Positions 1 through 7,467 of a DNA stretch of 64,000 nucleotides are shown here, piece by piece (the stretch's first letter is position 1; each line of letters starts with the position of its first letter). The position numbers and the translations under genes are program-made. Source of the stretch: Myxococcota bacterium (lineage in GTDB: Bacteria; Myxococcota_A; SURF-8); assembly GCA_963674735.2 (NCBI GenBank), contig CAXXQS010000002.1, positions 1,760,001-1,824,000 of the forward strand, in the 5' to 3' direction. Below the pieces are notes generated by a model. The model saw only the letters and a list, made by a program, of their open reading frames with translations. It was not told the DNA's origin and did not search any database.

Positions 1-2031
1 GGGAAATCGGCTCTGGATGCCATCCAGGAGCGTCCCTACGAGTTTGCCTTCATCGATGGTCTGCTTCCGGGGATCGATGGCTTCAAGCTGTGCGAAGAAA
101 TCCGTTGGATCAAGCATTCGGAGAAGATGCCCATCGTGATGATGTCGGGAGTTTACCGTGCCAGTACCAGTGCGGTGGAGGCGCGTCAGAAGTATAAGCT
201 TTTGGATTATCTGGAAAAACCGATCGCACCGGCGGTCATCATCAAACTGTTGCGCAAACATTTCGGCAACGAGTATCCCAAGCCGTTGGATATGATGGAA
301 AGCGATGGCTTTCACTCCATGATCAACACCTATTTTATGTACGATGCAACGAATCTTCCGTTGATCGGTCGTTTGGAAGCCGTGCCGCTTCCGGTGTTGC
401 TCAACCAGATCTGGGCCCGCAAACTGACCGGGCAAATGCTGATTTCGTGGAAGAAAGCCAAGAAAATCGTCAGCTTCGAAAAAGGACGGCCGGTGTCGGT
501 TAGCTCCAATATCATCGGCGAATGCTTGGGGCAGCAGCTCCTCAAAGACTCCGTAATCGATCAAAACCAACTGGATGCGTCGCTTGAGATCATGAAACAG
601 GTCGTCAAACGCCAGGGTGAAGTGTTGCTGCAGATGCATGCCATCAGTTCCCTGCAATTGGCCGAAGCCTTGCGGCGGCAATTCGAGATCAAACTGTTTT
701 CCGTGTTTCAATGGCAGGACGCTTCGTACAGCTTCAAGGCCTTGGAGGCTTTGCCGTCGGTTCCCAGTAAAATGGATCTGCATCCCTACACCCTGATTCG
801 TAACGGCGTGATGCAGCATGTGACGGTCGACCGACTTCAGCTCTGGTTGAAACCCTATCAAAGTGCCGAAATTCACGCCACCGAAAACTGCGAAAGCCTG
901 ATGCGGGAAGGTGGATTCAATCTGAAGGAGACGCGTTTCGCCCAAAATCTGGACGGGCTGGAGACGTTGAAAGAGGTGCTGGAAACGCCGTTCAAACGCA
1001 AAGATGATATGGCGGCCTTCATTTTCACTCTGATCGCCATCCGTGCCGTACAATTGGGCCAGCCGAAAGAAGACGACAGCGAGGTGGATGGCGAGACAAA
1101 GGTGTTCAACGGCGAACGCGAAGAAAGTCTGCTCGTTGCTCATGCTCACCACTTGCGTGATATCAATCAGGTTCCGACCGAACGAAACGATATTTCCGTC
1201 ATGGGCGCATCGGGAAAAACGCGGGCGATGAGCAAAGAAGACATCGAACGCCTTGAACTGATGCAGATCTTGCAACGGCTGACACCGGAGCAAAAAGGCC
1301 AGTACCAGCGGCTGTACGAATTTTACAAGAAGAACCAGGAAAAAAACTATTTCGAGATTTTCGACAGCGATCGACAGACGCCGATCGAGCAGATTAAAAA
1401 GCGGTTTTTGGAATTGGCCAAAACCTACCACCCCGACACGATCGCCCATCAGGATGTGCCCGAGATTCGGCGGTTGGCGGATGAAATATTCACGCTGCTT
1501 TCCAAGGCCCATGAGAATCTGACCAACAAGAAGAAGCGGGCCGAATACATGGAATATCTCAGCGGGGGCGGCAATGAAGACGCCACCGAGGAAGTCGCCA
1601 AAATCCTGGCCTCCGAAGAGCATTTCATGGAGGCCAAAACCGCCATCAAGCGCAAAGATTGGACGGCCGCCAAGCGTTCCCTGCTGGAAGCGCTGAAACT
1701 CAACTCGAACGAAGGCGAGTATTATTGCGAGTTGGGTTGGGCGCACTTCAACCTATCGGCCAACGACATGGTTTCGCGGCAGGAAGCCATCAAGTATCTG
1801 GAAAAAGCCATCGAGGTGACGCCGCGACTCGCCGACCCGCATTTTTATCTGGGGTCGATCTACAAGTCCGTGGGCGATCTGGGTAAGTCGGTGGATGCCT
1901 TCAGAGAATGCCTGCGCATCGATCCCAAGCACCATCGTGCCAAAAGCGAGATGCGGCTATTGAAAATGCGCCGCGAGGAAGAAGTCAGGGCGAAGGCCAA
2001 GGGCGGCCTTTTCTCTCGCTTCAAGAAGTGA
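1..2031 (+). CDS. Multidomain protein: receiver (REC) domain (5'-truncated by window edge), DUF4388-like region, J domain, TPR repeats
   Basis: Frame is open from base 1 (GKSALDAIQERPYEFAFIDGLLPGIDGFKLCEEIR...PIVMMSG...YLEKP, a REC motif set). J domain NYFEIF...LAKTYHPD carries HPD. C-terminal TPRs (EALKLNSNEGEYYCELG, ECLRIDPKH). Confidence 0.85.
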   Translation, partial: GKSALDAIQERPYEFAFIDGLLPGIDGFKLCEEIRWIKHSEKMPIVMMSGVYRASTSAVEARQKYKLLDYLEKPIAPAVIIKLLRKHFGNEYPKPLDMMESDGFHSMINTYFMYDATNLPLIGRLEAVPLPVLLNQIWARKLTGQMLISWKKAKKIVSFEKGRPVSVSSNIIGECLGQQLLKDSVIDQNQLDASLEIMKQVVKRQGEVLLQMHAISSLQLAEALRRQFEIKLFSVFQWQDASYSFKALEALPSVPSKMDLHPYTLIRNGVMQHVTVDRLQLWLKPYQSAEIHATENCESLMREGGFNLKETRFAQNLDGLETLKEVLETPFKRKDDMAAFIFTLIAIRAVQLGQPKEDDSEVDGETKVFNGEREESLLVAHAHHLRDINQVPTERNDISVMGASGKTRAMSKEDIERLELMQILQRLTPEQKGQYQRLYEFYKKNQEKNYFEIFDSDRQTPIEQIKKRFLELAKTYHPDTIAHQDVPEIRRLADEIFTLLSKAHENLTNKKKRAEYMEYLSGGGNEDATEEVAKILASEEHFMEAKTAIKRKDWTAAKRSLLEALKLNSNEGEYYCELGWAHFNLSANDMVSRQEAIKYLEKAIEVTPRLADPHFYLGSIYKSVGDLGKSVDAFRECLRIDPKHHRAKSEMRLLKMRREEEVRAKAKGGLFSRFKK
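1990..2031 (+). repeat. att-like direct repeat copy 1 (last 14 codons of the J/TPR gene)
   Basis: GCGAAGGCCAAGGGCGGCCTTTTCTCTCGCTTCAAGAAGTGA, repeated identically at 4243-4284 and with synonymous changes at 6529-6570. Confidence 0.9.
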
Positions 2032-2146
2032 AAACCAAGAAATTACAAGATATTTCGGCGACGTAAGCGGTTGCCCCGAAGGCGTGGTCGGTGACGGTCC
2101 GGAGACCGCTACCCGCGAGGGGATCGTGTAGTTGCGTGCGGCCGCT

Positions 2147-2797
2147 TTACGGGCAGGCGTGGTCGCTGCAATGCCACAGGCCGGTTTTGCATTCGCAGCG
2201 GTTGCAGCCGGTATCGCGACCGGCAATGGCGCCTTCATCATCGCAGGCGGTCGCCTGGGCGACGGGTTCCACACAGCTTTCGCCGTCATCCGCCGCTTCG
2301 GCTTCCAGACAGGCCATCACGCATGCGTTGCAATACAACGCTTCGTCGGTGGCGCAAAGCCACTCGGCCGAATCATTGGAGCAGGCCTCGCAATCATCGA
2401 AACACTCCGGCGCGGGGATTTCGCAGAGGGATTGGTCCTTTACAATGCCGTCAAGTTCGCTCGGTGGCAAACATGGCGACAGCGTGCATCCATCGTCACG
2501 AAAATGGGCAATCCCGTAATGTTCTTCTTTACATGCAAGTCCCAAGTTCGGCTTGCGACAGTGCATCATCGACGGCGCCGCCGAAACGCTTTCGCAGGCC
2601 ATCTGGCATTCGTTGGCATAGACGTAGCCGTCCTCACCGCAGATACCGGATACCGTGGAGGCGATCCATCGTGTCTCGGAAAGCTGGCAATCGCCGACGC
2701 AAGACGTATAGGCATCGATGTCATTTTCGTCGCCACAGGCAGAAAAAAGAAACAAAGAAATGACAATGAAAACGAAATATTCTTGGATTTTTTTCAT
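2147..2797 (-). CDS. Cys-rich lipoprotein with Kazal-like and pacifastin-like domains; putative serine protease inhibitor (cassette 1)
   Basis: Lipobox FSAC. Kazal-like CGEDGYVYANEC and LCATDEALYCNAC. Pacifastin-like CNRCECKTGLWHCSDHAC. AGGAGG RBS upstream. Confidence 0.75.
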   Translation of the reverse strand: MKKIQEYFVFIVISLFLFSACGDENDIDAYTSCVGDCQLSETRWIASTVSGICGEDGYVYANECQMACESVSAAPSMMHCRKPNLGLACKEEHYGIAHFRDDGCTLSPCLPPSELDGIVKDQSLCEIPAPECFDDCEACSNDSAEWLCATDEALYCNACVMACLEAEAADDGESCVEPVAQATACDDEGAIAGRDTGCNRCECKTGLWHCSDHACP

Positions 2798-2812
2798 CTT
2801 TACACCTCCTGA

Positions 2813-4155
2813 CTATTCGTCGCAGCGGACAAAGGGATAGCCGTTATCTGTATGCTCGTCGCAATCCAGCCCCGTCTTTTCACGTATCCAGGAAATTTTG
2901 CGGTCGATTCGGCAAGCGACTTGATCTGCACCCGTTGGGGCAGCGCAATTTGATGGTTCTCCATTTGCACAAACCTGCCTTGCGGCACCTGAATGGATTG
3001 CATCAAAAAGCCACAAGTTACCTGTGTACCTCGCCCAACCCGTTCCAGAGTCACCAAAGCAAGTTCGGTAATTATCGTTAGCATCATCCTTAACCATGTA
3101 ACTATATACAGAATCAAGCGAGAAACTTCCCCATCGCTTAACACCATCTCCAGAGTCAATGCACATGGAATTGTATCCACTTCCCCAAATCGTTTGAGCC
3201 CATCCTTGCGAGGGTGTTCCATTATACAGTCGGGCTTCGCTTATATTGCGATTCCAGCCAGGGGAAAAATATATCAGGCCAATGTCATCGTTTGTATCAA
3301 CCGTTCCTCCACCGCCCGAGTAGTCAATATGCATACGAAACCAAGCTGTCTTTGCATTATCACACTCGGTATGGCCTGCGATTGAATCAGTGATACATTC
3401 CTTCGCGCCGGTATTTTTATTCCACCAGTAAACTTGCAGACAACCGGAACATGTTGCAGCCAAATCTGGATCATCATTCGGAATGGCCATATCAATGCAA
3501 TGCGCTGCTGTTAGAATCCAATGATCGTTAATAATAATTCCATTGCAATAGCTAGGCTCTGGAGCATTTGGAATATTCCAATAGTTAACCCATATCTCCA
3601 CCACACTCTGGCTTGAATTCCAACTGGGAGTATCCCCCTTCCAGATCATCGGAACGATTTCGCCTTCTTCGGTGTCATGGTCGGGTTCTTCGTGCATCGA
3701 CGCTTCCGAGGCGAGAAAGGCCTGTTCCTCCGGGTCCACCGGTTCGATGGCCGGATCGGGCTCGAAGAATTCTTCGCGGGTGTTCAGGTAGTTTTTGGCC
3801 TGGATCGCCAGATTGGCCTCGGCGCAGGTCGCCACCTCGGTCAGGCCAGTCAGTTTCACGGCAAGCGGGTTTTTGCTCAGGAAACGGTTGATGGCGTCGT
3901 AATGGTAGCGGTAATCGACGCCGTTGATGCGGCAGATGCCGAGATGCTCTTGCGAGTAGTCGTCGGGCGGCATCTCGCCTTCCTCGTAGCCGCAATGCCC
4001 GCCGTCGGAAAACGGTTCCACATCGAAACCGGAAATCAGCTCATTCAAGGCGATTTCATCGGGCGGGTCGATGCTTAAGGGGGGGGGTCACCACCGCATC
4101 CGTGGAACAGAAAAACCGCCAAAGCCGCACTTGCAAACACCATTACTCGCCGCAT
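2813..4155 (-). CDS. Lipoprotein trypsin-fold (S1) serine protease, frameshifted at a poly-C tract (cassette 1)
   Basis: Catalytic motifs TAAHC, DIGL, GDSG. Signal peptide MRRVMVFASAALAVFLFHGC starts at ATG 4155 behind AGGAG but is out of frame with the body at the 9-C run (4079-4087). Confidence 0.85.
4079..4087 (-). repeat. Poly-C (G9 on + strand) homopolymer within protease 5' coding region
   Basis: Nine consecutive G on the + strand; 10 would fuse the signal peptide to the protease. Confidence 0.9.
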
Positions 4156-4200
4156 GAGCATCTCCTATCGATTATACATCCAATATGAGACATGAAAGAA

Positions 4201-4229
4201 ACTTTAGCAGTCGAATGAGGAGGTGTCAA
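4201..4229 (-). promoter_or_regulatory. sigma70-type promoter of cassette 1
   Basis: TTGACA-17 nt-TAAAGT with TGn extension on the minus strand; a TATAAT also lies at 4171-4176. Confidence 0.65.
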
Positions 4230-4242
4230 TCGAAAAAAGCGA

Positions 4243-4284
4243 GCGAAGGCCAAGGGCGGCCTTTTCTCTCGCTTCAAGAAGTGA
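4243..4284 (+). repeat. att-like direct repeat copy 2
   Basis: Identical to 1990-2031; high identity continues downstream to ~4683. Confidence 0.9.
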
Positions 4285-4399
4285 AAACCAAGAAATTACA
4301 AGATATTTCAGCGACATAAGCGGTTGCCCCGAAGGCGTGGTCGGTGACGGTCCGGAGACCGCCACCCGCGAGGGGATCGTGTAGTTACGTGCGGCCGTT

Positions 4400-5077
4400 T
4401 TATGGGCAGGCGTGGTCGCTGCAGTGCCACAGGCCGCTTTTGCATTCGCAGCGGTTGCAGCCGCTGTCGCGACCGGCAATGGCGCCTTCATCATCGCAGG
4501 CGGTCGCCTGGGCGACGGGTTCCACGCAGCTTTCGCCGTCATCCGCCGCTTCGGCTTCCAGACAGGTCATCACACAGGCATTGCAATACAGCGCCTCGTC
4601 GGTGGCACAAAGCCATTCGCTCGTATCGTCGGAGCAGGCCTCGCAGTCATCGAAACATTCCGGTGCGGGGATTTCGCAGAGGGTGGAGTTCTCGGTAGGC
4701 CCGACATCACTGTCCCCAACGTCCTCACATAACTGAAGCGTACAACTATCAGATTGAAAAATCGCAGTATCGTAGTGCTTACAGCTATGGGACAGTTCCG
4801 GACGGCGGCAGTACATCATCGATAGCGCGGCTTCATCGCCGTAACATTCCATCTGGCATTCATTGGTGTATATGCTTCCATCTTGCCCACAGATACCAGA
4901 TTCATATAGACTCATTAGGCTGTCTTCCAGTTCTCCACAGGTTTCCAGGCAGACGGCCAAAGGATCGTTGTCACCGTCGGCATCGCCATCTCCGAGCGAG
5001 TCGTCATCCCCGCCGCAGGCGGAAAGGAGAAATACTGACAAGATAATGAAAATAAAATTTTCTTGTATTTTTTTCAT
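4400..5077 (-). CDS. Cys-rich lipoprotein with Kazal-like and pacifastin-like domains; putative protease inhibitor (cassette 2)
   Basis: Lipobox LSAC. Kazal-like CGQDGSIYTNEC. C-terminal ~94 aa nearly identical to the cassette 1 protein, ending CNRCECKSGLWHCSDHACP. Confidence 0.75.
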   Translation of the reverse strand: MKKIQENFIFIILSVFLLSACGGDDDSLGDGDADGDNDPLAVCLETCGELEDSLMSLYESGICGQDGSIYTNECQMECYGDEAALSMMYCRRPELSHSCKHYDTAIFQSDSCTLQLCEDVGDSDVGPTENSTLCEIPAPECFDDCEACSDDTSEWLCATDEALYCNACVMTCLEAEAADDGESCVEPVAQATACDDEGAIAGRDSGCNRCECKSGLWHCSDHACP

Positions 5078-5092
5078 TTTTCCACCTCCAGG

Positions 5093-6441
5093 CTATTGGT
5101 CGCAACGGACAAAGGGATAGCCGTTGTCTGTATACGACGGACAGGACAATCCTGTTTTGTCCCTTATCCAGGAAATCCTTCGATCAATACGACAACCGAC
5201 TTGAGCCGCACCGGTGGGTGCTGCACAGAAAGTTCTTCCGTTAACATCACCGCCATTACTACAAGTACCTTTTGCAGATGCTGAGTGAATGGCATCGAAA
5301 AGCCACAGATTTCCCGTATACTTTACCCAGCCTCCACCGGAATCGCCGGAACAGACTCGATAATCATCACCAGCGGCCACATAATCAACCACCGTATAAC
5401 TGGTCACGGATTCGAGAAAAAAAGCGCCTACCCTTTTAGTACCCAATCCAAGTGGAGTGCATAAGGAATTGAATCCAGCTCCCCAAATCGTTTGAGCCGA
5501 GTACCAGGGCGGTGTGCCGTTAAAAAGTCGAGCTTCACTGATGTTTTCGTTCCAGCCCGGCGAGTAGTATATAAGAGCGATATCGCTTCCTGAGTCCGGA
5601 TTGCCAGCATAGTCGATATGATAACGAAAAGTGGCGGTTTTTCCTGTTTGGCATTCGGCATGTCCCGGCGTTGAATCGGTAATGCACTCTTTCGTTCCCG
5701 TGTTTTTATCCCACCAGTAAGCCATCAGGCAACCCGAGCAACTATAAGATTTGTCGGGATCGTTGGGGGGAACCGCCTGATCGACACAATGAGCCGCCGT
5801 TAGAATCCAGCGATCATTGATAACAATCCCTGTACAGGTATTTCGATCATTAGGATCATCCCATTTGCCGGAATGAACTAGAACTACACTTTGGCTGGTG
5901 TTCCAATTCGGGAAATTGCCCGTCCAGATCATCGGAACGATTTCGCCTTCTTCGGTGTCATCGTCGGGTTCTTCGTGCATCGACGCTTCCGAGGCGAGAA
6001 AGGCCTGTTCCTCCGGGTTCACCGGTTCGATGGCCGGATCGGGCTCGAAGAATTCTTCGCGGGTGTTCAGGTAGTTTTTGGCCTGGATCGCCAGATTGGC
6101 CTCGGCGCAGGTCGCCACCTCGGTCAGGCCAGTCAGTTTCACGGCAAGCGGGTTTTTGCTCAGGAAACGGTTGATGGCGTCGTAATGGTAGCGGTAATCG
6201 ACGCCGTTGATGCGGCAGATGCCGAGATGCTCCTGCGAGTAGTCGTCGGGCGGCATCTCGCCTTCCTCGTAGCCGCAATGCCCGCCGTCGGAAAACGGTT
6301 CCACATCGAAACCGGAAATCAGCTCATTCAAGGCGATTTCATCGGGCGGGTCGATGCTTAAGGGGGGGGGGGGTCACCACCGCATCCGTGGAACAGAAAA
6401 ACCGCCAAAGCCGCACTTGCAAACACCATTACTCGCCGCAT
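5093..6441 (-). CDS. Lipoprotein trypsin-fold (S1) serine protease, frameshifted at a poly-C tract (cassette 2)
   Basis: TAAHC, DIAL, GDSGG. Same signal peptide from ATG 6441, out of frame at the 12-C run (6362-6373). Confidence 0.85.
6362..6373 (-). repeat. Poly-C (G12 on + strand) homopolymer within protease 5' coding region
   Basis: Twelve consecutive G on the + strand; 10 or 13 would be in frame. Confidence 0.9.
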
Positions 6442-6486
6442 GAGCATCTCCTATCGATTATACATCCAATATGAGACATGAAAGAA

Positions 6487-6515
6487 ACTTTAGCAGTCGA
6501 ATGAGGAGGTGTCAA
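6487..6515 (-). promoter_or_regulatory. sigma70-type promoter of cassette 2
   Basis: Identical to 4201-4229 (TTGACA-N17-TAAAGT). Confidence 0.65.
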
Positions 6516-6528
6516 TCGAAAAAAGCGA

Positions 6529-6570
6529 GCGAAGGCCAAGGGCGGCTTGTTTTCTCGTTTCAAGAAATAA
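6529..6570 (+). repeat. att-like direct repeat copy 3 (synonymously diverged, displaced 3' end of the J/TPR gene)
   Basis: GCGAAGGCCAAGGGCGGCTTGTTTTCTCGTTTCAAGAAATAA still encodes AKAKGGLFSRFKK*. Confidence 0.85.
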
Positions 6571-6582
6571 TGTATCCCGGAA

Positions 6583-7185
6583 TCACAGAATACCCCAGCG
6601 CTTTTGAATGATTCGCGATACGGCGAACAACACCAGCGCGGCAGCGGCGACGAGCAGCAGGGCCGCCGGATGGTAGGGGGCGATCTGCCAGCGCATCAGC
6701 AGCGGGCTGTAGGAAGCCAGCGACGCCAGAACGACCGCCAGGGCGAACAGACGCGATCGGGGCGCTTTGTCTCCCAGGTGGGCGAAAGCCAGCGTGGCGG
6801 CAATGGCGGCAAAGGTGATGGCGAAGAGGTTGCCGGGATGCACCCAGGGATCGAAATTGTCGAGGGAGGTCTCGTGCCAGGCGATGAAGGCTTTCAGGGT
6901 GGCAAAACGGTAGGTGACCGCGCTACTCGAAAGCAGCAGCGACAACAGCAGGGTCCAAGGCATCCGCTTGCTGGAGTCGACCAGCGGTTTGCCGCGAAAG
7001 GTGATGTGTTGCGGAAGATTGAAGCTGCGAAAGACGATGGCCAGTGCGGCGAACAGAAACACCGCCAGGGTCACTTCCTGCGCCTGCAGCAGAATCGGCC
7101 AGTAAGGGTCGGGAAGACGCTTGGCCAGTCCGAGCATGGTGAAAGTGAGAGTCAGGCTGGCAAGCATCACGTACAGCATCGGCAT
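6583..7185 (-). CDS. Hypothetical integral membrane protein (~6 TM)
   Basis: Multiple hydrophobic helices. Likely start MPMLYVML at 7185; the ORF extends to 7374. Confidence 0.65.
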   Translation of the reverse strand: MPMLYVMLASLTLTFTMLGLAKRLPDPYWPILLQAQEVTLAVFLFAALAIVFRSFNLPQHITFRGKPLVDSSKRMPWTLLLSLLLSSSAVTYRFATLKAFIAWHETSLDNFDPWVHPGNLFAITFAAIAATLAFAHLGDKAPRSRLFALAVVLASLASYSPLLMRWQIAPYHPAALLLVAAAALVLFAVSRIIQKRWGIL

Positions 7186-7467
7186 CCTTGACGTTGCGAT
7201 TTTGTCGAGATTCGATCCTAAACCAAGTTCTTCGTGCAAGCAATAGACGCCCCGATTTTTATCTCCTCGTTTACTACTTACCGTTCCATGGAATTCTTTT
7301 TCTTCTTGTCTCCGTTTAGCGTTGACCCATTCCGGCAAACGCGGTAGAGCATACTCGGGTAGGCCGCCTCGCACGATTCGGGCGGTAATTGGGAAGAAGA
7401 GACCCGCTTGGGCGCTCTTCTTCTTCGAAAGCTAACAGGACGCGCGAAGGCGCGGAAGGAGGACGCG

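Follow-up and report, generated by a model that had tools for sequence, protein, structure and literature searches.

Tandem cassettes of a predicted S1 protease and a Kazal/pacifastin-like lipoprotein inserted at the end of a DnaJ-TPR gene in a Myxococcota genome

The closest functional analogue of the system described here is the KLIKK-peptidase/potempin system of Tannerella forsythia, in which each gene for a secreted or surface peptidase shares a transcript with the gene of a small lipoprotein, a specific inhibitor of that peptidase that protects the producer's outer membrane (PMC9890683). The system in question lies in a 64,000-nucleotide (nt) stretch of a Myxococcota bacterium, hereafter the window (GenBank assembly GCA_963674735.2, contig CAXXQS010000002.1, positions 1,760,001 to 1,824,000), and consists of two tandem cassettes, each with a predicted S1 protease gene followed by the gene of a cysteine-rich lipoprotein. 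Both the window and T. forsythia have several paralogous pairs with near-identical non-catalytic parts and differing catalytic domains, whereas potempins are beta-barrels (OB or eight-stranded) encoded upstream of the peptidase (PMC9890683), and the window partner is encoded downstream and is Kazal/pacifastin-like. The two systems show no homology, the window proteins lack the C-terminal domain of the type IX secretion system, and the window pairs differ in being tandem inserted cassettes with a poly-C tract. An earlier note on this DNA knew of no description of such an arrangement. A protease with a co-transcribed lipoprotein inhibitor is already a known kind (PMC9890683). What stands of that claim is the combination, no description of a bacterial S1 protease operon with a Kazal/pacifastin lipoprotein having been found in the open-access library searched.

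Kazal inhibitors (PF00050/PF07648; rhodniin 1tbq, CrSPI-1 3pis) share with the window lipoproteins the CG-x-DG-xx-Y-x-N-x-C core, the Cys spacing and the multi-domain array, but the window protein is a bacterial lipoprotein with extra cysteines, and its hidden Markov model (HMM) scores lie around the curated cut-offs, one of them above. Its first module has a 15-residue stretch between the second and third Cys, which is shorter in classical Kazal domains. The likeness to pacifastin (PF05375) consists of a C-terminal C-x12-CN-x-C-x-C-xx-G-xxx-C-[ST]-xxx-C and of a transitive HMM link to bacterial proteins that have from three to nine Pacifastin_I domains. A 2026 report describes pacifastin-like domains in bacteria, and the flanking genes named in the available portion of that report include no linked S1 protease (PMC13388995). 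The window module gives these recently proposed domains a concrete genomic context.

In polymorphic toxin-immunity systems (contact-dependent inhibition (CDI), Rhs, the lipoprotein SitA) a conserved N-terminal part, a variable C-terminal enzyme and an adjacent varying gene are found in mobile arrays. The window has a conserved N part, a variable enzymatic C part and a co-varying downstream gene, but no delivery domain or apparatus was found there, and its "immunity" protein would be a predicted secreted multi-module protease inhibitor. In the contingency genes of Neisseria, Haemophilus and Campylobacter homopolymer tracts set the reading frame, as does the G/C run of 9-12 nt just after a surface-protein signal peptide in the window, although here both copies are off-frame and the host belongs to an uncultured deltaproteobacterium-like lineage. 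Integrative elements target gene 3' ends and restore them, and integron cassettes are a further point of reference. The window array resembles such elements in having a core that flanks it and also sits between its two units, a newly supplied gene end, an empty site in a relative and a palindromic junction, but it is built of a 2.3-kb element without integrase that targets the end of a protein-coding gene instead of a tRNA gene or attI.

The module is real, unusual and very rare, and its mosaic and insertion structure is well supported. With a probability of about 0.5, we read it as a mobile module of a protease and its cognate inhibitor, possibly phase-variable.

Insertion and mosaic structure of the cassettes

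Two tandem direct-repeat units of 2253 and 2286 nt occupy positions 1990-6546 on the minus strand (repeat search; start-to-start spacing across 1990-6566), in agreement with the two units of about 2.27 kb seen earlier. A blastn search of the genome with unit 1 gave 77.9% identity to unit 2 over 2363 nt, and no further copy of any unit part was found in the genome. Both units are laid out as promoter-like site, lipoprotein signal open reading frame (ORF), poly-C run, S1 protease frame and Cys-rich lipoprotein gene (Table 1), and ORF reading and Pfam revealed no other gene in them. The distance from the protease stop to the start of the second gene, previously put at about 15 bp, is exactly 15 nt in both units and contains GGAGGTG, and an AGGAGA ribosome-binding site precedes the signal-peptide ATG (6441 in unit 1, 4155 in unit 2). 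In the order promoter, lipoprotein protease, Cys-rich lipoprotein that had been proposed, the S1 and Cys-rich genes hold, the lipoprotein signal is out of frame with the protease in both units, and the promoter is not above the shuffled background: the four promoter-like matches are statistically unremarkable beside the 3.9 expected from shuffles, and the two sites in the units are not independent because both sit in a block identical between units.

The array is an insertion. Three copies of an 18-nt core, GCGAAGGCCAAGGGCGGC on the plus strand, are present (1990, 4243 and 6529). To the left of the core the 4243 and 6529 copies agree (the promoter side of a unit) and the 1990 copy has the body of the DnaJ-TPR gene; to the right the 1990 and 4243 copies agree (LFSRFKK and stop, then the unit 3' flank). 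The flanks therefore run gene-element, element-element and element-native gene end. The present 3' end of the DnaJ-TPR gene was probably brought by the element because it is identical to the copy at 4261-4284. The 24 nt after the third core also encode LFSRFKK and stop, with six base differences that are all synonymous or stop-to-stop, and this displaced gene end lies 12 nt from the stop of a convergent membrane-protein gene. In the relative G003 (L110) the site is empty, the DnaJ-TPR orthologue (ending in FLSRFKK and stop) lying about 22 nt from the membrane-protein orthologue (55% identical); in the fetched flanks of the DnaJ-TPR loci of the other six relatives no orthologue of the membrane protein was found. 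The three cores, the displaced gene end and the empty site bear out the att-like ends of the earlier note.

At the element-element junction the sequence folds into an extended hairpin that precedes a U-run (-22.3 kcal/mol); it looks like a terminator of operon 1 and has the make-up of an attP site. No recombinase gene was found in the unit, the nearest recombinase-like gene being XerD-like and about 37 kb away. The surroundings are ordinary chromosome (RNase D, Nuo subunits, XerD, MurD, HemB/L, flagellin), with housekeeping neighbours and no secretion-system genes nearby. A 2.3-kb cassette that restores the end of the gene it interrupts without encoding a recombinase makes gene mobility tractable on a small scale. 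The core also has an AAGGCC...GGCCTT inverted repeat, which resembles the DnaJ-TPR gene's own terminator as well.

Alignment of the units showed blocks of very different identity. Positions 6530-5931 and 4244-3648 differ by three substitutions and a 3-C length difference (about 99.5% identical), positions 5930-4692 and 3647-2439 are about 60% identical, and positions 4691-4272 and 2438-2019 are about 94% identical overall (80-97% per 60-nt interval). The swapped catalytic block that had been noticed earlier is confirmed at the protein level: protease residues 1-137 are 98% identical between units (synonymous divergence, dS, 0.011), and residues 138-412 only 65% (synonymous sites saturated, proportion of synonymous differences, pS, 0.83; nonsynonymous divergence, dN, 0.29), with a sharp boundary at residue 137. 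In the inhibitor, residues 23-135, comprising the first Kazal-like module and the linker, are 43% identical with saturated synonymous sites, and residues 136-225 are 93% identical (dS 0.33, dN/dS 0.10). The G+C content at third codon positions (GC3) of the N block is 0.69-0.82, like that of host genes (mean 0.73 over 11 long ORFs), and that of the catalytic part is 0.36-0.56, like that of the whole protease genes of L008 (0.41) and L009 (0.36), the two other known loci. The catalytic domains of the two units are mutually closest (65% vs 47-51% to the other two). Two histories would fit: a recent exchange of arms between diverged cassette alleles, or gene conversion that homogenised the arms of an old duplicate. 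Plain duplication was considered and is ruled out by the alternation of blocks of about 99.5%, 60% and 94% identity along the units.

The protease and the Cys-rich lipoprotein

The first gene encodes a predicted S1 protease of chymotrypsin fold. Pfam Trypsin (PF00089) gave 40.2 and 23.7 bits for the two proteases at a cut-off of 20.6, the catalytic triad H181 (TAAHC), D250 (DI[AG]L) and S331 (GDSG) is invariant in all six aligned relatives, and a profile of six protease relatives matched 269 S1 sequences of the PDB (best 7.3e-9), the top ones being animal-type S1A enzymes. Trypsin and Trypsin_2 were the only Pfam domains in the protease; no delivery or trafficking domain was found. A lipoprotein signal stands at the start of all five relatives inspected (P0003, P0004, P0005, P0006, P0008). 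In the window the signal has 19 residues (MRR...LFHGC) and ends at the lipobox Cys; an N-terminal block of about 115-135 residues, a putative propeptide, and a catalytic domain of about 275 residues follow. The motif E-[IV]-[VE]-P-x-I-W, conserved in four close relatives, directly precedes the switch to divergence in the protease and is suspected to be the propeptide cleavage site. A search with the N-terminal block alone found no protein in which it is joined to any other domain.

Several side observations concern specificity. At the position aligning with trypsin Asp189, all six relatives have an invariant Arg (window 5093-6331 and 2813-4048, minus strand), a hint that acidic residues may be preferred at P1. 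The [IV][VE]P-x-IW motif at the mosaic boundary has a conserved Glu in front of it, and C-G-E-L follows the second Cys in four of the seven inhibitors. The putative P1 residues, placed by a Kazal numbering that we take to apply here, do not agree across the four paired inhibitors. Glu/Asp specificity is kept as a lead only. Apart from these, a high-GC metagenome contig (L010:2465-5694) carries two tandem S1 protease genes whose products, of 547 and 511 residues, have the N-terminal domain of the window protease family and Cys-rich tails, and which are followed by a different gene for a Cys-containing lipoprotein. At L008:1451-1480, over the start-codon region of the orthologous protease gene, the 8-nt unit GCAGGTAT, each copy of which contains ATG, is present three times plus a partial copy; this simple repeat might be a second repeat type able to modulate translation in the protease family.

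For the second gene, the best reading is a lipoprotein of two Kazal-like modules and one pacifastin-like module, the pieces of evidence being individually weak but consistent. The signatures claimed for the Cys-rich proteins are literally present in both, that of Kazal as CGQDGSIYTNEC and CGEDGYVYANEC and that of pacifastin as CNRCECK[ST]GLWHCSDHAC, and their lipoboxes (L-S-A-C and F-S-A-C) are typical by reading. A word-index search with the inhibitor returned only the window's two proteins, and relatives required an exhaustive profile search, which gave 145 matches at E<=1e-3 among 1.84 billion representatives; those inspected are multi-Kazal or multi-pacifastin bacterial lipoproteins. In seven family members, at Pfam E-values up to 1 and with not all matches above the curated cut-off, Kazal_2 was found in six, Kazal_1 in four and Pacifastin_I in one (P0015, 26.2 bits, under the cut-off of 27.9). 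The family profile also matched P0030 at 2.9e-11 (positions 125-215) and P0142 at 4e-4 (positions 194-216), which have three (1.2e-16) and nine (1.2e-53) Pacifastin_I domains, respectively. Against the PDB it gave 18 matches at E<=10, 15 of them serine-protease inhibitors: 12 Kazal entries at positions 50-81 and 131-166 (best rhodniin, 3.1e-4) and three pacifastin-family inhibitors at positions 194-216 (E only 0.28-0.87).

Structure prediction pointed, weakly, the same way. An AlphaFold2 model from three sequences was unusable (predicted local distance difference test, pLDDT, 40.6), and one from seven sequences reached 63.8 overall (70-88, 71-77 and 52-60 in modules 1, 2 and 3, respectively). 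With the latter, Foldseek gave no PDB match at E<=1e-3; its list was topped by follistatin, Kazal (3pis_A, probability 0.97) and pacifastin entries, all weaker than that threshold. In a VIA scan of 48,161 chains, independent of Foldseek, all ten chains with Z>=2 were of Kazal or follistatin type, the best being 3pis_A with module 2 (Z only 4.0, root-mean-square deviation 1.4 A, 39/39 residues). The ESM Atlas gave no lead, its best score (0.80) being to an unnamed cluster of 77 residues. As a separate observation, the same two modules make up, as repeats, further bacterial lipoproteins (P0142, P0030, P0098, P0119, P0020, P0018, P0025), in which an atypical Kazal-like CPAPEYW-CG-DG-LYCNEC and a pacifastin-like DDGCN-C-C-G-W-C recur; P0030 and P0098 also have additional repeated C-terminal domains.

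Reading frames, pairing in relatives and alternative explanations

The signal frame ends at a TAA right after the C-run (...CGGDPPPP and stop in unit 1, ...CGGDPPP and stop in unit 2), and the protease frame opens at the C-run in a different frame (PPPPLSIDPPDE...). Since the two frames differ, neither unit has an intact lipoprotein-protease ORF as assembled. In-frame lengths would be 7, 10 or 13 C, both tracts needing +1 C or -2 C. The tract is the sole indel in the 600-nt block, the paralogous tracts differing by 3 C. The relative P0003 reads CGDAPPAQID...LIIGF, where the window has ...CGGDPPPP and stop in one frame and PPPPLSID...LISGF in the next; because P0003 spans the point at which the window frames abut, the tract lies inside an ancestral coding region and encodes a Pro-run. 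A separate ribosome-binding site serves the inhibitor gene, making it independent of the tract.

Pairing was followed in relatives. Beyond the window's own, the only close relatives of the protease among 5.77 billion proteins were P0003 (46%) and P0004 (44%); the remaining matches were at most 28% identical, except one covering 4% of the query. With contig collections included, only three protease-bearing loci were found. Nothing was found when plasmids (tblastn) and viral contigs were searched for the module. In all four close protease genes, namely the two of the window, that of L005/L008 (whose proteins are identical and were counted once) and that of the metagenome contig L009, the inhibitor gene lies directly downstream, and the junction is 15 nt or overlapping in all four, in three genomes with differing flanks; the flanks of the L005 and L009 pairs also differ from the window's. 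Pairing as such is thus kept. On the other hand, a strict cognate partnership and the expandable, diversifying system of the earlier note are not supported: G002 and G006 have inhibitor-family genes but no such protease, and the two other loci have one pair each in unrelated places, are only 46-51% identical, and form no known allelic series.

Of 401 genomes from the phylum, 10, the window's own among them, had matches to the inhibitor profile at E<=1e-8. Among the full-length family genes with known context, four of the eight are linked to the protease and the other four are not beside one. G006 (96% complete) has one such gene without protease, between purine-synthesis genes and an unrelated lipoprotein gene (ORF-translation reading). 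G002 (86% complete) has three, two of them in tandem next to a 16S-methyltransferase-like gene, with a spacing of 106-173 nt depending on the start codon chosen; the third, P0031, sits between histidine-kinase-like and DEAD-box-helicase-like genes (ORF-translation reading). G002 also has P0020, a shorter form with two Kazal modules plus pacifastin, beside a membrane-protein ORF. The protease profile had no match in either genome, at the completeness given.

In the mechanism that we propose, a conserved DnaJ-TPR gene has taken up, within its last codons, two tandem integrase-less cassettes of 2.25-2.29 kb, each forming a two-gene operon for a lipoprotein pre-pro-protease of family S1 and then a lipoprotein of three disulfide-rich inhibitor modules. 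Both proteins would be exported and lipid-anchored in the same envelope compartment, where the inhibitor would restrain the co-expressed protease and protect the producer's envelope. The first Kazal-like module would set cognate specificity, a role suggested by its exchange along with the catalytic domain. The poly-C tract would gate translation of the protease: with 12 or 9 C the signal peptide ends at TAA, and +1 or -2 C would fuse it to the protease. The protease would thus be made only occasionally, in population variants or through a slipping polymerase or ribosome, and the inhibitor always. If the inhibitor acts on its neighbour, this would be a bacterial protease/inhibitor module drawn wholly from families best known in animals, and its natural matched pairs would serve for studying the co-evolution of inhibitor-protease specificity. 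The module may also show how a dangerous surface protease is kept switchable (poly-C tract) and shielded (inhibitor always made).

A number of results weigh against a mobile, phase-variable module of protease and cognate inhibitor. The protease-less genes in G002 and G006 indicate that the inhibitor is not a strictly cognate partner and that its family also works without this protease. A complex prediction for the catalytic domain and the mature inhibitor scored 0.00, which is uninformative on binding. In the HMM check Trypsin was above the cut-off in both proteases and Kazal_1 in copy 2 (24.7 bits, cut-off 21), but copy 1 fell under both Kazal cut-offs (20.9 bits, cut-off 22.8; 16.9 bits, cut-off 21), and neither window protein matched Pacifastin_I (PF05375) at E<=1. 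The protease lipobox F-H-G-C is atypical by reading, but the relatives P0004, P0005, P0006 and P0008 have I-A-C, A-A-C or V-G-C. The L008 and L009 pairs have no flanking direct repeats of at least 14 nt, and mobility is therefore shown only for the window locus. As regards phase variation, contigs cannot reveal minor tract-length variants, and two proteases out of frame in the same phase also fit dead genes.

The frame breaks could be other than biological, coming from an assembly error (true tracts of 13 and 10 C, genes intact) or from pseudogene decay after duplication. We regard this as unlikely, and its share of probability overlaps with that of the two explanations weighed below. Both tracts lack exactly one C, the deficit expected from homopolymer under-calling; no G/C homopolymer of the 5.26-Mb genome is longer than the 12-C tract, and none of the contigs listed for the runs X1 and X2 covers it (5975-6475). 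Yet among the 11 G/C runs of at least 9 nt in the genome only the two protease tracts split two frames, and at least five of the other nine (runs of 9-11, including G11) sit in frame in long ORFs, which makes a systematic homopolymer error unlikely. In both X1 and X2 a 621-nt contig has exactly 9 C at 4079-4087, although it is not independent support because it possibly comes from the sample behind the assembly. This shared contig was placed on unit 2 only, and its depth, 8.45 in X1 vs 5.4+3.0 for the core contigs and 24 in X2 vs 10.3+10.5 (somewhat above the core-contig sum), is as a collapsed repeat would give. Decay is countered by the two frames of 411/412 codons, both of which are open. 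Between the two catalytic domains 35% of residues differ, and dN of 0.29 vs saturated synonymous sites means past purifying selection.

Two further explanations differ in what the lipoprotein does. In the polymorphic effector/immunity system of the earlier note, the protease would reach neighbouring cells through contact, vesicles or outer-membrane exchange and harm their envelope, immunity would come from the downstream lipoprotein, and specificity would be diversified by the swapping of cassettes. The conserved N block set against a variable catalytic block at a sharp boundary, the co-variation of the adjacent part of the downstream gene, and the mobile, tandem-inserted state and foreign-looking GC3 of the cassette are all expected on this account, and the protease-less genes of G002 and G006 could be orphan immunity genes. 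It fares worse with the Pfam results, which show no delivery or trafficking domain, with the housekeeping context lacking secretion-system genes, with the three protease loci and no known allelic series, with an N block not found joined to another toxin domain, and with a second cassette that is complete and no orphan tip; the co-varying downstream gene stands and the toxin/immunity reading is otherwise possible but unsupported, which leaves the account improbable. Equally improbable, in our estimate, is an ecotin-like general shield against foreign serine proteases of competitors, predators or hosts, the adjacency of the protease being due to co-regulation or hitch-hiking. The family genes that are not beside a protease fit such a shield, as do P0020, P0030, P0098 and P0142, related bacterial lipoproteins in which these modules form arrays, no protease being evident, and the 93% conservation of the two C-terminal modules between cassettes although the proteases differ. 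Against a general shield stand the downstream position kept in all four close protease genes in three genomes with different flanks, and the first module, which diverges along with the catalytic domain. Decidedly improbable is the boldest combination, a new class of integrase-less cassettes restoring a housekeeping gene end, in which a phase-variable S1 protease would be an envelope toxin delivered by contact or vesicles, warhead and first Kazal-like immunity module would be swapped as one block between conserved recombination arms, and the protease-less inhibitor arrays of relatives would be orphan immunity genes.

Feature coordinates and neighbouring genes

Table 1. Features of the two cassettes and of protease-less inhibitor-family genes in relatives (window positions unless a locus is named)
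Feature	Coordinates	Strand	Remarks
Core copy 1	1990..2007	+	within last codons (AKAKGG) of DnaJ-TPR gene 127-2031
Present 3' end of DnaJ-TPR gene	2008..2031	+	LFSRFKK and TGA
Core copy 3 and displaced native DnaJ-TPR 3' end	6529..6570	+	encodes AKAKGGLFSRFKK and stop
Promoter-like site 1	6487..6515	-	sigma-70-like: TTGACA, 17-nt spacer with TG, TAAAGT
Signal-peptide mini-ORF 1	6358..6441	-	27 codons and TAA
Poly-C run 1, 12 C	6362..6373	-	out of frame, phase same as in unit 2
Protease 1 open frame	5093..6373	-	longest ORF with start codon from TTG 6331
Protease 1 domains	N block to ~5921; catalytic domain 5920-5096	-	propeptide-like N block; S1 catalytic domain with TAAHC, DIAL, GDSGGG
Cys-rich lipoprotein 1	4400..5077	-	225 residues, 25 Cys, lipobox LSAC
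Lipoprotein 1 modules	~4951-4808; ~4657-4526; ~4498-4403	-	Kazal-like 1; Kazal-like 2; pacifastin-like
Unit 1/unit 2 junction	4225..4300	-	core copy 2 (4243-4260) within extended hairpin, then U-run
Promoter-like site 2	4201..4229	-	TTGACA, 17-nt spacer, TG, TAAAGT
Signal-peptide mini-ORF 2	4075..4155	-	26 codons and TAA; Shine-Dalgarno AGGAGA upstream
Poly-C run 2, 9 C	4079..4087	-	between lipobox and protease frame; out of frame
Protease 2 open frame	2813..4087	-	longest ORF with start codon from TTG 4048
Protease 2 domains	N block to ~3638; catalytic domain 3637-2816	-	propeptide-like N block; S1 catalytic domain with TAAHC, DIGL, GDSGTG
Cys-rich lipoprotein 2	2147..2797	-	216 residues, 25 Cys, lipobox FSAC; Kazal-like, Kazal-like, pacifastin-like
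Variable core	4692..5930 (unit 1); 2439-3647 (unit 2)	-	mature protease and inhibitor signal, first Kazal-like module, linker
Protease-less inhibitor-family genes	L099:657-2163 (G002); L104:1507-2163; L106:1246-1773; L090:1501-2169 (G006)

The gene at 127-2031 (plus strand) encodes a protein with DUF4388, DnaJ and TPR domains that was found in all ten relatives searched, four of the matches being partial. On the other side of the array, 6583-7374 (minus strand) encodes a predicted membrane protein of 263 residues with no Pfam or NCBIfam family. In X3, loose contig ends fall at 2371, 4375-4379 and 6086 of the window; three of the four end in GATC and the fourth abuts GATC at 4375-4379, and they look like library ligation chimeras, not structural variants of the locus.

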